Positions 17,636 to 22,739 of a DNA stretch of 64,000 bases are shown piece by piece. Numbering within the stretch: position 1 is the first letter of the stretch; each line of letters opens with the position of its first letter. Origin of the DNA: Deltaproteobacteria bacterium. GTDB taxonomy: Bacteria > Bdellovibrionota_C > UBA2361 > SZUA-149 > JADZAE01. The stretch lies in NCBI GenBank assembly GCA_020852715.1, contig JADZAE010000077.1, positions 39,622 to 103,621 of the forward strand. Direction: 5' to 3'. The notes under the pieces are model-generated. The model was not told the origin of the DNA, did not search any database, and saw nothing but the letters and a program-made list of their open reading frames with translations. The position numbers and the translations under genes were made by a program.

Positions 17636-18721
17636 CTAAGTGACTATCATCCGTAGAATATTCTCCGGGCAAACATGACTACAAAGAGAGCAGCCGTCGC
17701 ATAAATTATTATCGATAAGTATCGGCTTTAGAGAAACTTTTCGCGAAAGTGATTCGTGTGTAGATATTGAGCCCACAGCTTTGCCGCACATTTCCTCAAT
17801 TGAGCTAAATCCCTTGTCGGTCATGTAATTTGTAAGGCCGGCGATCATGGGCCGAATTATCTCAAAACCATTAAGCATCACGGCTGTGCAAACTTGAACC
17901 ACGTAGGAGCTGGCAGAAATATTCGATGGCGTCTTTATAGTCAGAGATACCACCGAGGCCGTGAATAGGAAGTTTAACCTTTGCCGCAATCTGCGAACCA
18001 CATCTTAGGCCAATTGGCTTAACACTTTGTCCGGAATATCCACCGTAGGTAGAATAGCCCGAGACGTTGGGTAGCGGTTGAAACGTATCGATATCTACCC
18101 CCATTAAACACTATACTGTATTAATAGCGGCAAGCGCATCGGCGTTTCCCTCTAAGGCAGCTTGAGTAATGGAGACAATATCCATAACATTTGGCGTAAA
18201 CTTTACGATTAACGGGAACTTTACTTCCGACTTAATCGCCCGGGTCATTTCTCTCTCCAAAGCAGCGTCTTGGCCGATGGCTGCACCAATATGCTTTTCC
18301 GGCATGCCGTTTAACTCAAGCGCATCGGCACCGGCATCAGCAACTGCCTTTGCTACCCCGATCCAGCTTTCTATATTGCTGTGCCCCATAATGCTGGCAC
18401 TGAGCATCTTTCCGGGAAAATCTTTTTTTATTGCTGTTATTTCGGCTAACCAATAGCCGAGACTTTTCTGCTGAGTAGCTCAATATTTTCAAATCCAATT
18501 AATTCGTTTTTTGCGCTTTTGATCGTAGCAAAACGCGGAGATATGTTTTCAATAGTTAAATCATCGGGTGTAATGGTTTTAATAACAGCCCCTCCCCAAC
18601 CGTTAGCAAGATCGCGTCTAATCATTTCACCTGTGGCAGTGGGCGGTCCTGAAGCTAACAAAAAAGGATTTTCATATTCTAGTCCATTGTGAGTAGTTCT
18701 AAGTAAACTTGAAGATGGCAT
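17636..18721 (-). pseudogene. Dihydropyrimidine/dihydroorotate dehydrogenase-family protein with a C-terminal 4Fe-4S ferredoxin domain (PreA-like). Split into four ORFs by two frameshifts and one in-frame stop.
   Basis: NPFLLASGPP... (18721 frame), ...ELNGMPEKHIGAAIGQD...KFPLIVKFTPNV (18407 frame), ...LPIHGLGGISDYKDAIEYF, ...CDGCSLCSHVCPENI. Reading frames run 1, 2, 2, 1. Confidence 0.7.
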
Positions 18722-19483: not shown

Positions 19484-20353
19484 ATGGCAATGAAATTAAA
19501 CGGAACTTTTTTTGATTTTTTTAGCACAGATAAACTTATATTGCATGGGTTACTGGCTAAAACAGCGTCGCGCAACAAGAAGCTGCTGATATTTATTCAT
19601 GGTATGGGCGGATCATTTTATTCTTCGAAGTTGGTGGCCGTATTGGTGGCGGGACTAAAAAATAGTGGTTATGATTTGATGAGCATCAATACGCGCGGGC
19701 ATGGAACAGTTAGCCGCCTTAAGACAAGTAAAGGCGCACGCGTGCTGGGGGGCACTGCGCATGAGGTTTTTAAAGATTGTATTTTTGATATTAAGGGGGC
19801 GATTAAGCAGGCCAAGGAGTTTGGGTATAAGGAGTTCGTCTTGGCCGGGCACAGCACGGGCTGTCAAAAGATTACTTATTTCCAACATCAGGTGCGTGCG
19901 GCAAATGTGAAGGCGGTGATTTTGTTGGCACCGGCCGATGATTACAACATAGACCTTGCGGAGAAAGGTAGGCTGAGGATGGAAAAAGCGGTGCGTATTG
20001 CTAAGGCTATGGTGAAGGCTGGTTACGGCAATATGCCCGTGCCTAGTTGGATTTCGAATTTTAGCGCGCGGCGGTATTTAAGTATTGCGGATAAGAAGAG
20101 TCTGGAAGCGAGCGTGTTTAATTACACTTCTTCACTGAAGATATTTTCTACGCTGAAGCTTCCTGTGTTGGCGGTTTTCGGCACTGATGAGGTTCCGTGC
20201 GGAATGAGTTCTGAGCACATGCTAGATCTACTCCATGTAAAAACAAACGCGCGGCTTTTCATGTCTGCTTTGATCAATAAGGCGGATCACAGCTTTTCGG
20301 GAAAAGAAAAAGAGATGGTTTTGGCCGTTAAAAGTTTTCTAAAAAAACTTTAG
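19484..20353 (+). CDS. Alpha/beta-hydrolase-fold protein.
   Basis: LIFIHGMGGS and the nucleophile elbow GHSTGC (GxSxG). 289 aa, intact. Confidence 0.65.
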   Translation: MAMKLNGTFFDFFSTDKLILHGLLAKTASRNKKLLIFIHGMGGSFYSSKLVAVLVAGLKNSGYDLMSINTRGHGTVSRLKTSKGARVLGGTAHEVFKDCIFDIKGAIKQAKEFGYKEFVLAGHSTGCQKITYFQHQVRAANVKAVILLAPADDYNIDLAEKGRLRMEKAVRIAKAMVKAGYGNMPVPSWISNFSARRYLSIADKKSLEASVFNYTSSLKIFSTLKLPVLAVFGTDEVPCGMSSEHMLDLLHVKTNARLFMSALINKADHSFSGKEKEMVLAVKSFLKKL

Positions 20354-20751
20354 TAGCCAAACAAATCCCTTCTACCTTTTGCTTCCATACATTTATCGAA
20401 GCAATTAGGATAAGTGGTTTGATCAAAGGGGCCTGTTCGTGGTTTTTTAAGGCAATCGCTAACGCAGAATTTACATCTTTCAAATTCCGGCTGGGCAACG
20501 AGCTTACATCGCGCCGCGCTATTGTTTGTATTTTCGCAACTTACAAAATGGCGACAACGGTCCTCGGGGGTGTAATGTTTCGTGCACATCGGGGGTTCTG
20601 TGTAAAGTTTGCAAGTGACATCATAACCGTGACAGGGGTCAAGTTCACAGCGCGGCTGGGCTTGGGTAACGGTGGCGACTAAGTTGATAAATAGGCTTAT
20701 AAATACTCTCAGGGCCAATTTATTGTTTTGCATAATTAGTTGTTTAGACAC
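20350..20751 (-). CDS. Secreted Cys-rich small protein (10 Cys) with a signal peptide. Tandem paralog of 20736..21083.
   Basis: Shared pattern C-x-(L/I)-x-PCHG-x-D-x-x-C...MCT...Y...D-x-CR-x-F-x-x-C...C-x-L...C-K-x-CV...C. N-terminal hydrophobic leader. Confidence 0.55.
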   Translation of the reverse strand: MSKQLIMQNNKLALRVFISLFINLVATVTQAQPRCELDPCHGYDVTCKLYTEPPMCTKHYTPEDRCRHFVSCENTNNSAARCKLVAQPEFERCKFCVSDCLKKPRTGPFDQTTYPNCFDKCMEAKGRRDLFGY

Positions 20752-21083
20752 CCGGCTTCGCAGGTAAAGGCAGCCATGGGATCATCAGTATTATTTCTTT
20801 CGCAGTTTTCCACACAGACTTTACAAGTAGTAAATTGGCTCGACATACTAAGCGCGCAAATGCCATTTTGTTTTTGGCAAGTGGCGAATTGGCGGCAATT
20901 ATCGCCGAGCTGATACTCTTCCGTGCACATTTGTGGTTCATCGAGCTCGGTGCATTGAATATCAAGTCCGTGGCAGGGAGTAATTGCGCACTGTTTGGTG
21001 CTATCATCGCCGGAGGTGCCGCCACAGCTTAAAAGAAAGATAAAAGAAGCTAAGACGGCGATGGATAAATTTCTATGTCGCAT
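20736..21083 (-). CDS. Cys-rich small lipoprotein (lipobox LLSCGG). Tandem paralog of 20350..20751.
   Basis: MRHRNLSIAVLASFIFLLSCGG... The mature domain has the same Cys spacing as its neighbour. It overlaps the neighbour by 16 nt. Confidence 0.55.
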   Translation of the reverse strand: MRHRNLSIAVLASFIFLLSCGGTSGDDSTKQCAITPCHGLDIQCTELDEPQMCTEEYQLGDNCRQFATCQKQNGICALSMSSQFTTCKVCVENCERNNTDDPMAAFTCEAGCLNN

Positions 21084-21281
21084 GATCGCCTTTCGTTTAG
21101 TTTATGAAGTTATTATGATTTGCTTGCTATGCAAGTCGCACGTTGATCATATTAGTCCGTTAGCGGGAATATAAGCAATTTGTTTATTTATTTTGCAAAG
21201 GCTTAATATAACTAGCTTGCTTATGCCTCTAAAAGCGGCCTAAACTCTAAAAATTATTAGAATTTAGCCGATAATGACTTT

Positions 21282-22739
21282 ATGTGGGGTTCTTTCAAAA
21301 TATCTTGTGCGGTTCTGTTAGGAGTCTTCAGCCTGGGTGTAATTTTTATCTTATCCCCTGCTCTAGCTCAAGCCGATGCGCTGGTTAGTGAGGTCAATAG
21401 TAACGGCCGGATTATCACACTAACTGTTAACTATAAGCCGAGCAAAGAAGCATGGGCTAATCATATTACTACTCAGGCAAAGATATTTTTGCAGGCGTTT
21501 GAACCGTATTTGGGAATTAATTTGCCGGCGTGGGCAAATAACCAGGTGGTTATTAATGGCTGCGACAGTTGTCAGGCGCGGCTTGATGGTGGACAGATTT
21601 ATGTGCAGTAAGTTGATACGCTTAAGTCTAAGCCAGCGTTGGTGATGCATGAGTTGGGACATTACTGGTATTATTATTGTCAGAACTCTGCGTGTCAGGA
21701 GTGATTGGTTGAGGGTATTACTAGCTTTATTTCGGTGATGCTCAGACGTGCGCATTTGTTGCCTAATGACTTTAGTTGTCGGGATGAAGTTAATCGTTGG
21801 TGGGGTTATGATTGGAATCTAACACCAGGCACTTCGTTAAAAGATGTTCCGCTTTGTCCGTTTGATGAGAGCAAGCGCAGTTTGATTTATTATAAATCGT
21901 TTCGCCTTCAGCATTTGATTTATTTTACTTTGGGAAAAACTCGTTACATCACCTTTTTAAGGAACCTAATCAACAAGCAGTTAAAAACTAATGCTGGAAT
22001 CATTGCTGAGCTTAATATATTGAGGCCAGTGGACTTAAATACTTTACTTACGGGTTGGGTATTTGGCAGGCAGTATTTGGGTTACAAGATGAGCGATTTT
22101 GCCAAGGATTACGATTCGGATGGTTTATCAAAGGTAGAAGAAATGGCGCTCGGGCTTTCGGATAATGTTTATGATGCTGATCGGGATGGAATTCCGGACG
22201 GTGCGGAGATACGAGCACTTAGAAATCCTAGAAAAACTGATGCTGATGGAGTTTCGCAGCTCTTGCGCTATGGTCCGTTTATTGACGGTGGGCAGCGGGA
22301 TTGGACGTATTTTAGTTATTCTACGGCGGATGATTCGGTCGATGATCAAGTCGGCCGGAGCTGGGCTGACATGACGAGGATGCAATATTATATTCAGGGG
22401 GGATATTTATTTATCTTAGTGAAGACAAGAGGCTACCCACCGCGTTCGTCCAATGTATTTTTTGATTTATTGATCGATACAGATAGGGACTATTATACAG
22501 ATGTAGAGTTTGCCTTCTTGCTAAATAATAAAGCTTACCCGTGGCAATATGTGGTGGATATAGAGAAATCATCCAATCCCACTGCTCTTCGCGCCGGGAT
22601 AGCCCGCTACATAGAGATGAAGATTCCTCTCTCCAAAATCCCAGTTTCCGACTTCCAAGTCTTACCGATTATACGTAACAGCCAAACCGCCACCAACCTA
22701 GATCAGTGGAGCACCTGGATCCCTACCAGCCTCCCATAA
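21282..22739 (+). pseudogene. Secreted HExxH zinc-metalloprotease-like protein (signal peptide, HELGH). Interrupted by an in-frame TAA (21609-21611) and TGA (21702-21704).
   Basis: 21282 and 21705 are in the same frame: ...GGQIYVQ*VDTLKSKPALVMHELGHYWYYYCQNSACQE*LVEGITS... C-terminal region has Asp-rich Ca-binding-like repeats (DSDGLS, DADRDGIPDGAE). Confidence 0.55.

Follow-up and report, generated by a model that had tools for sequence, protein, structure and literature searches.

What are the two small, Cys-rich, exported proteins encoded side by side in a metagenome-assembled genome (MAG) of a Deltaproteobacteria bacterium, and do they belong to a wider family? The DNA analyzed here, referred to below as the window, is a stretch of 64,000 nucleotides (nt) from contig JADZAE010000077.1 (assembly GCA_020852715.1), and the two genes are designated open reading frame (ORF) A and ORF B (Table 1). 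A first-pass annotation, made from the letters of this stretch, had described them as adjacent minus-strand genes for exported products, one of them a lipoprotein, that share an unrecognized disulfide-rich mini-domain with ten cysteines. The ORF list bears out the position and strand of both genes, and a check by hand found a lipobox in ORF A and a type I signal in ORF B. The Cys motif is present in both ORFs as it had been written, and the two products are homologous (BLASTP E = 2e-19, 32% identity); the count of ten has to be raised, since each mature region contains twelve cysteines, all of which align. As set out below, the shared domain is very probably an exported, disulfide-stabilized structural module of a new protein family.

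An exhaustive HMMER search of 1.84 billion cluster representatives with a profile of ORF A and ORF B returned 373 representatives at E ≤ 1e-3, of which 211 also passed E ≤ 1e-10. A family hidden Markov model (HMM) built without both ORFs gave ORF A 103 bits (E = 7e-25) and ORF B 70.8 bits (E = 9e-15), with E values computed at a database size of 1.84 billion; judged by these held-out scores, both ORFs lie far beyond chance expectation. The family-profile scores rule out the possibility that the ORFs are spurious. ORF A and ORF B are real genes, and they are probably cotranscribed.

The domain is ~85 residues long, and its consensus reads C-G-I-E-N-C-H-G-L-D-I-x-C-G-x4-P-x2-C-T-x2-Y-x-L-G-D-x-C-R-Q-F-A-x-C-x4-G-x-C-x7-F-x2-C-K-x-C-V-x2-C-x13-F-x-C-E-x2-C. 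The C-x4-C-H-G pattern, which both CAITPCHG in ORF A and CELDPCHG in ORF B fit, was found in 146 of the 150 best representatives. Across 149 aligned domains all twelve cysteines, the His-Gly, and one Asp were invariant, and G-D-x-C-R was also essentially invariant. When the fetched loci were included (271 domains), the Cys losses were end truncations or belonged to one decayed copy with an in-frame stop. The first-pass annotation had named conservation of the Cys pattern beforehand as the point on which its proposal would turn, and the pattern is invariant across these 271 homologous domains, in a family with 373 representatives. We also looked for disulfide pairs through the natural loss of Cys pairs, and none could be inferred, every exception being a truncation or a pseudogene. 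Bacterial and archaeal members are 45 to 56% identical with almost no indels, and within the family both variation and indels are greatest in the loop that joins the last two predicted helices.

Searches of both ORFs against Pfam (E ≤ 10), NCBIfam, PHROGs, and PADLOC returned nothing, even at E ≤ 10 or ≤ 1. The named members are all called "hypothetical protein" and carry no precomputed Pfam domain. A sequence search of the PDB with the family profile gave a single chance match to a RING finger (E = 0.37), and a literature search found no described Cys-rich family of this kind from the candidate phyla radiation (CPR) or the DPANN archaea. By sequence comparison, the domain represents an unnamed family that is without a named relative in curated libraries.

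AlphaFold2 modeled the ORF A domain with a predicted local distance difference test (pLDDT) score of 94 and a predicted template modeling (pTM) score of 0.79 from a 69-sequence alignment, placing strands at residues 2 to 6 and 14 to 18, a helix at 32 to 37, strands at 38 to 43 and 46 to 51, and helices at 53 to 68 and 73 to 80 (domain numbering). With high confidence, the predicted fold is a beta-hairpin, a loop, a short helix, a second beta-hairpin, and a two-helix hairpin bearing twin CX3C motifs. The ORF B model (pLDDT, 83; pTM, 0.70) has the same order of elements, with a longer loop in the second hairpin, a longer interhelix loop, and an extended last helix. Foldseek comparisons with the PDB and BFVD produced nothing below an E value of 0.67; a faint match to the vicilin-leader hairpinin 7uv3 (29 columns; root mean square deviation, 2.4; E = 6.9) was not significant. 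Because small disulfide-rich folds score poorly in such searches, the modeled fold is likely, rather than established, to be new. The mini-domain was thus rightly described as unrecognized, given that no curated library and no known fold matches it. Exported disulfide-rich mini-domains are a familiar general class; the domain is new at the level of the family and probably also at the level of the fold, and no new mechanism is demonstrated for it.

The distribution of the family was assessed in a carrier scan that used one genome per species and two consensus peptide patterns, with taxa assigned by record title; these patterns favor the consensus subfamily, such that relatives of ORF A and ORF B are undersampled among the 66 loci recovered. 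Patescibacteria/CPR (including Wirthbacteria) accounted for 22 of the 66 loci, Methanoregula or Methanoregulaceae for 11, DPANN archaea for 9, Omnitrophota for 7, and records labeled Gammaproteobacteria, Pseudomonadales, or Pseudomonadota for 9, with 8 loci in other taxa. In their first ~57 residues, the GIY-YIG gene of one "uncultured Gammaproteobacteria" locus (L033) and that of a Magasanikbacteria (CPR) locus (L020) hardly differ, and the family proteins of the two loci have the same length. Given this near-identical neighboring gene, several of the "Gammaproteobacteria" and "Pseudomonadales" labels may be wrong, with at least one being doubtful. In Methanoregula MAGs (L051, L054, L055, L059, L062, and L065), the family gene lies directly upstream of a 401-amino-acid gene whose product begins MA[DE]L[RK]IVGTAHVSQKSV. 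This conserved synteny shows a stable chromosomal Methanoregula gene, not episymbiont contamination; the Methanoregula family genes are chromosomal, on contigs of up to 340 kb. No family member was found in viral contigs, phage records, or plasmid records.

A hydrophobic N-terminal segment precedes the domain in 189 of 203 members (~93%), the domain is C-terminal in 180 of them (89%), and ~38 of the 203 have a lipobox-like site. The part ahead of the domain has a median length of 49 residues, with Pro, Thr, and Ser often abundant. Both ORFs of the pair have an N-terminal export signal and the domain at the C terminus. In several CPR proteins (P0030, L045 4069-4953, and L009 5563-6246), a second small Cys module, with a motif of approximately T-W-W-F-D-A-N-L-N-x5-G-C-N-P-A-C-V-V-x4-T-K-T-A-E-I-N-W-R-C-T-G and no Pfam match, lies directly N-terminal to the twelve-Cys domain.

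Several observations suggest that the twelve cysteines form six disulfides rather than serving as metal ligands. The location is extracytoplasmic via Sec-type, not Tat-type, signals; the number of cysteines is even and invariant; their spacing is mostly 3 to 13 residues, with a single CX2C; and Kazal domains, which need disulfides, share the same polypeptides in some members. In addition, CPR genomes are enriched in MdbA-like oxidoreductases adjoining VKOR (bioRxiv 10.1101/335083), which also points to disulfide formation. Following Sec export, ORF A would be lipid-anchored and ORF B would be free in the periplasm, and the twelve thiols of each would pair off as six disulfides; judging from other twin-CX3C hairpins, C90-C112 and C94-C108 of ORF A would be two of these pairs. 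The product would be a rigid, protease-resistant module located just outside the cytoplasmic membrane.

If the thiols instead remained reduced, they could, together with the His, bind Fe, Zn, Ni, Co, or Cu or act as a surface redox buffer or relay in anoxic habitats. Such a role would suit carriers that are mostly strict anaerobes (Methanoregula, CPR, DPANN, and Omnitrophota), as well as a domain of 85 residues that contains 12 Cys and 1 His and has a helix with an invariant C-K-x-C (CXXC); the conservation between bacteria and archaea would suit a universal small ligand, and one member (P0048) is fused to a Cyt-b5-like domain. Nevertheless, we consider a metal-binding or redox-active protein unlikely. 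Sec or lipoprotein signals and membrane anchors, rather than twin-arginine signals, imply that the protein crosses the membrane unfolded and free of cofactor. The Cys spacing includes neither the paired CX2C of zinc knuckles nor the CX2CX2CX3C of ferredoxins, and the regular, high-confidence secondary structure of the model is unlike that of metallothioneins. Moreover, the Kazal fusions and the MdbA/VKOR machinery of CPR show that disulfide formation is available, and, in a search with Rfam, neither the region upstream of ORF A nor any of 12 related loci yielded a metal-sensing riboswitch.

The sequence C-x4-C-H is also a recognized variant of the heme c attachment motif, found, for example, in tetraheme cytochrome c3. 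It is invariant in these exported proteins, and covalent heme attachment would make them small extracytoplasmic cytochromes. This is very improbable: no second invariant His or Met is present as a distal ligand (a Met precedes Cys4 in about a quarter of the members), the motif is predicted to lie in a beta-hairpin loop rather than in a helix, and the ten other invariant cysteines would be left unexplained. Most CPR, DPANN, and Methanomicrobiales are not known to have cytochrome c maturation systems, which likewise weighs against heme attachment.

For the disulfide-stabilized module itself, we tentatively suggest, as a speculation that falls short of being probable, a noncatalytic binding module that would act by capturing or blocking a conserved target outside the cell, most plausibly an envelope-attacking hydrolase. 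One reason for this suggestion is a set of sporadic domain fusions. The twelve-Cys domain is fused to two Kazal domains, above the Pfam threshold, in a protein of a Pacearchaeota MAG (L050 5287-6240), whereas in L006 and P0073 Kazal was seen only as the motif CGCDGKTYSN. L045 and one representative join it to an MliC lysozyme inhibitor domain, L046 joins it to PrcB_C along with cohesin and dockerin, and P0037 joins it to an M23 peptidase; further fusions involve dockerin, SLH, and Big_2. Kazal domains (PF00050 and PF07648) resemble the twelve-Cys domain in being small, exported, and disulfide stabilized and in being found together with it in multidomain surface proteins (L050, plus L006 and P0073 as judged by motif); they differ in having six cysteines and another fold, and neither ORF matches their Pfam models at E ≤ 10. 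In DPANN and CPR surface proteins, Kazal-type domains are linked to the twelve-Cys domain as well as to further Cys-rich stretches. An inhibitor-like role, which the first-pass annotation had entertained, is possible, with some indirect support from the domain fusions that stops short of a demonstration.

A second reason is the twin CX3C motif, which matches the Cys motif of the plant alpha-hairpinins. In these peptides, two C-X3-C motifs (C-X3-C...C-X3-C) staple a helix-loop-helix through C1-C4 and C2-C3 disulfides, and some of them are canonical trypsin inhibitors in which the two CX3C motifs flank the reactive loop (PMC7191063). The last two predicted helices of the twelve-Cys domain, with C-x3-C pairs ~13 residues apart, resemble both alpha-hairpinins (e.g., the trypsin inhibitors BWI-2c and VhTI) and the twin-CX3C hairpins of small Tim proteins, and the faint Foldseek match to 7uv3 points in the same direction. 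The loop corresponding to the hairpinin reactive loop is the most variable segment of the twelve-Cys domain. The likeness is confined to the C-terminal third of the domain, however, and the two N-terminal hairpins, eight further cysteines, and the CHG motif have no counterpart in alpha-hairpinins. The latter are ~30 to 50 amino acids long with four cysteines, compared to 85 residues and 12 cysteines here, and there is no sequence similarity; they are also processed plant peptides, whereas the twelve-Cys proteins are prokaryotic and membrane tethered.

A third reason is the combination of a lipoprotein with a soluble paralog. MliC and PliC are lipoprotein and soluble periplasmic forms of an inhibitor encoded by paralogous genes. 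The pair formed by ORF A and ORF B recalls this arrangement, such that a tethered and a soluble protein would act in the manner of MliC/PliC or ecotin-type periplasmic inhibitors; the MliC fusions mentioned above add to the likeness. The domains are unlike in sequence and in fold, with MliC (PF09864) being a beta-barrel with few cysteines.

A number of observations weigh against a binding or inhibitory role. First, inhibitor-domain fusions are few (~4 of roughly 270 proteins), and the fusion partners are heterogeneous, also including Cyt-b5 (P0048), BatD, TPR, and several DUFs. Second, the hairpinin likeness covers only a substructure, with an E value of 6.9. Third, the N-terminal half (C-G-I-E-N-C-H-G-L-D-I-x-C-G and Y-x-x-G-D-x-C-R-Q-F-A) provides the best-conserved surface, which argues for a conserved ligand rather than a target in an arms race. 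Fourth, since archaeal carriers have no peptidoglycan to protect, a role as a lysozyme inhibitor could not be general. Fifth, exposed thiols might remain reduced in the many carriers that live as strict anaerobes. Finally, ORF clustering of 71 loci revealed no protease, lysozyme, or other gene conserved beside family members; apart from synteny within the genus Methanoregula, it brought up only ubiquitous ABC ATPases, small GIY-YIG proteins, and methyltransferases. The neighborhoods of three individual members likewise showed no conserved partner gene.

The absence of immunity or export genes adjoining the family in these 71 loci also bears on whether the proteins are released antimicrobial or toxin-like Cys-rich peptides, in the manner of defensins or alpha-hairpinins. 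Although they are small, Cys-rich, and exported, and although their C-terminal twin CX3C is the motif of alpha-hairpinins, several of which are antimicrobial, most members seem to be membrane anchored rather than released, their net charge is acidic to neutral rather than cationic, and their conservation is high. We regard this possibility as highly unlikely.

A surface adhesin or host interaction factor that attaches episymbionts to their hosts or to a surface scaffold, with the local duplication reflecting diversification, has somewhat more in its favor. The family is enriched in presumed episymbiont lineages (CPR, DPANN, and Omnitrophota), the domain sits at the tip of a membrane-anchored and often Pro/Thr/Ser-rich stalk, the fusions include dockerin, cohesin, SLH, and Big_2, and ORF B is strongly diverged. 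For host-specific recognition, however, the sequences show too much conservation and too little variation in length, and the genes are usually single copy and were not found on viral contigs, phages, or plasmids. They are also chromosomal in free-living Methanoregula and are present in this bacterium, which has a larger genome. An adhesin is thus a rather improbable explanation. The first-pass annotation had suggested a host interaction or toxin-like factor under diversification, and this fits poorly with the high conservation, few indels, usual single copy, and lack of a partner gene.

Does the tandem arrangement nonetheless point to diversification? The first-pass annotation had read it in this way, but the pair is a peculiarity of this genome. 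Genome contigs were scanned with the profile of both ORFs, and metagenome contigs with ORF A and with ORF B, for close relatives or for a tandem pair conserved elsewhere, and none were found. The usual copy number is one per locus, and the family was single copy among the examined loci of relatives, including those encoding the 115-amino-acid lipoprotein-type proteins P0004 and P0077. The sole other two-copy locus, in a Moraniibacteriota MAG, has its second copy (L007 1262-1504) 4.5 kb from an intact one, and this copy is decayed, with an in-frame stop just before CHG and a Cys5-to-Arg change. Within the window, ORF A and ORF B are the only family copies.

ORF A is an ordinary family member, with at most 56% identity to CPR and Omnitrophota sequences. 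It corresponds exactly to GenBank MCC6933711.1 (IT292_10755; "hypothetical protein" [Deltaproteobacteria bacterium MAG]), on a contig of 124 kb. The protein opens with MRHRNLSIAVLASFIFLLSC-GG, comprising a positive n-region, a 13-residue hydrophobic core, and L-L-S-C. The lipobox rule, applied by hand, requires that a positive n-region and a hydrophobic core precede [LVI][ASTVIL][GAS]C and that the Cys fall within residues 15 to 35, and the leader MRHRN-LSIAVLASFIF-LLSC agrees with it; Cys20 is the predicted lipidated residue, with Gly at +2. This lipobox Cys is the thirteenth Cys of the protein. The domain cysteines are at positions 32, 37, 44, 53, 63, 69, 76, 87, 90, 94, 108, and 112; His38-Gly39 and Asp61 are the invariant residues, and C90-x3-C94 and C108-x3-C112 form the twin CX3C. 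ORF A also has Y-x-x-G-D-x-C-R and the Glu after Cys11.

ORF B, in contrast, is an outlier: seen from ORF A, the identity between the two ranks 266th of 271. ORF B keeps the Y, D, and R of Y-x-x-G-D-x-C-R, but three residues that are >90% conserved are replaced (Lys for Gly after Cys3, Glu for Gly before the invariant Asp, and Phe for Glu after Cys11). The Pro before CHG, which is rare in the family (16 of 272), is common to ORF A and ORF B. The shared rare Pro and the divergence of ORF B fit, without proving, an old local duplication followed by rapid divergence of ORF B. ORF B is a strongly diverged paralog and not a sign of family-wide diversification. We also considered recent horizontal acquisition on the basis of base composition and rejected it, as the GC content of the locus (0.43 to 0.47) equals that of its flanks.

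The start of ORF B has two candidates. From the ATG (20733-20731), ORF B begins 2 nt past the TAA of ORF A (20738-20736) with no overlap, whereas an in-frame GTG at 20751 would give a 133-amino-acid product (20350-20751) and a 16-nt overlap with ORF A; the sequence itself does not decide between them. The slight overlap that had been described for the two genes therefore holds only with the GTG and gives way to a 2-nt gap with the ATG. Read from the ATG, ORF B opens with MQNNKLALRVFISLFINLVATVTQA followed by QP and, checked by hand, has a T-x-A cleavage site with a predicted cut before Gln26. With either start, ORF B was absent from a collection of 15 billion proteins, which does contain ORF A and both plus-strand neighbors from the same contig. 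A word-index homology search with ORF B also returned nothing, and one with ORF A retrieved ORF A alone. ORF B is thus probably a gene missing from public annotation, and, for this genome, the analysis recovers a gene that was seemingly left out.

At its broadest, the exported module can be pictured as an undescribed extracellular domain with a new disulfide-rich fold that moved horizontally between Bacteria and Archaea and became concentrated in ultrasmall, partner-dependent lineages (CPR, DPANN, and Omnitrophota) and in the methanogens that live with them, where it would serve a common conserved envelope function, such as disarming an extracellular hydrolase that all of them encounter or binding a ligand that they share; the tandem pair would then be a diderm adaptation. 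We regard this whole picture as possible but doubtful. CPR and DPANN genomes are dominated by proteins of unknown function, and cell surface biology is key to life on other cells. The domain is compact and highly conserved, with ~50% identity across both prokaryotic domains and hundreds of lineages, and at 85 residues it is small enough to make and test directly, which offers an inexpensive way into a surface function that uncultivated microbes conserve. The domain could be proposed as a new Pfam family and perhaps also as a new fold.

Table 1. Coordinates of ORF A, ORF B, and adjoining features in the window
Feature	Coordinates	Strand	Description	Basis
ORF A	20736..21083	minus	115-amino-acid lipoprotein precursor; TAA stop 20736-20738 included	ORF list
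ORF A signal peptide and lipobox	21024..21083	minus	residues 1-20, MRHRNLSIAVLASFIFLLSC	read from sequence
ORF A twelve-Cys domain	20739..20996	minus	residues 30-115	alignments and AlphaFold2 model
ORF B	20350..20733	minus	127 amino acids from ATG 20733, secreted/periplasmic precursor; TAA stop 20350-20352 included	ORF list and sequence
ORF B type I signal peptide	20659..20733	minus	residues 1-25, MQNNKLALRVFISLFINLVATVTQA	hand check, -3/-1 rule
ORF B twelve-Cys domain and C-terminal tail	20353..20655	minus	residues 27-127	AlphaFold2 model and alignment
Shine-Dalgarno-like GAAAGG	21089..21094	minus	putative, 5 nt 5' of the ORF A ATG	read from sequence
Divergent intergenic region	21084..21281		198 nt, ORF A to the plus-strand gene at 21282	
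Alpha/beta-hydrolase (DUF1749/Hydrolase_4)	19484-20353	convergent with ORF B	ORF B 3' end overlaps by 4 nt	

The promoter of the pair presumably lies in the divergent intergenic region (Table 1). One promoter-like match was present on the minus strand (21233-21205), and the number of matches was not above the shuffled expectation; Rfam identified no riboswitch or other element upstream of ORF A, near the pair, or in the 12 related loci. On the other side of this region, a plus-strand stretch (21282-22739) forms one frame interrupted by two stops (TAA 21609-21611 and TGA 21702-21704), and the 30-residue piece between them holds HELGH (21648-21662), a motif of the HExxH metalloprotease type. Pfam gave a subthreshold match to plant/bacterial BSP-peptidase over HELGH (E = 0.15). 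GenBank annotates the parts on either side as two hypothetical proteins, IT292_10760 (109 amino acids, with a signal peptide) and IT292_10765 (344 amino acids, with Asp-rich repeats like those that bind calcium); a pseudogene, a sequencing error, and recoding are all possible explanations. A secreted HExxH protein beside a putative inhibitor pair is suggestive, although the pairing is not conserved elsewhere and the gene may be a pseudogene.

A second gene in the window also appears to be broken. This minus-strand gene resembling dihydroorotate/dihydropyrimidine dehydrogenase (17636-18721; DHO_dh matches), whose C-terminal piece has a 4Fe-4S-like CxxCxxCxxxCP, is broken up into four ORFs that lie in different frames, implying several frameshifts within 1.1 kb. 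An IleRS-like ORF (1602-2936) matches just the first half of its Pfam model. Nonoverlapping ORFs of at least 100 amino acids cover 71% of the 64 kb (GC content, 43.8%), a low figure for bacterial DNA. This coverage, taken with the broken genes at 17636-18721 and 21282-22739, suggests gene decay or assembly errors in the MAG. Finally, two phenylalanyl-tRNA synthetase subunits of 534 and 561 amino acids are encoded on the minus strand at 43298-46598; with a long alpha subunit and a beta subunit that has only B5 and CLM domains, the enzyme looks, by length and domain matches, more archaeal/spirochete-like than the usual bacterial type.

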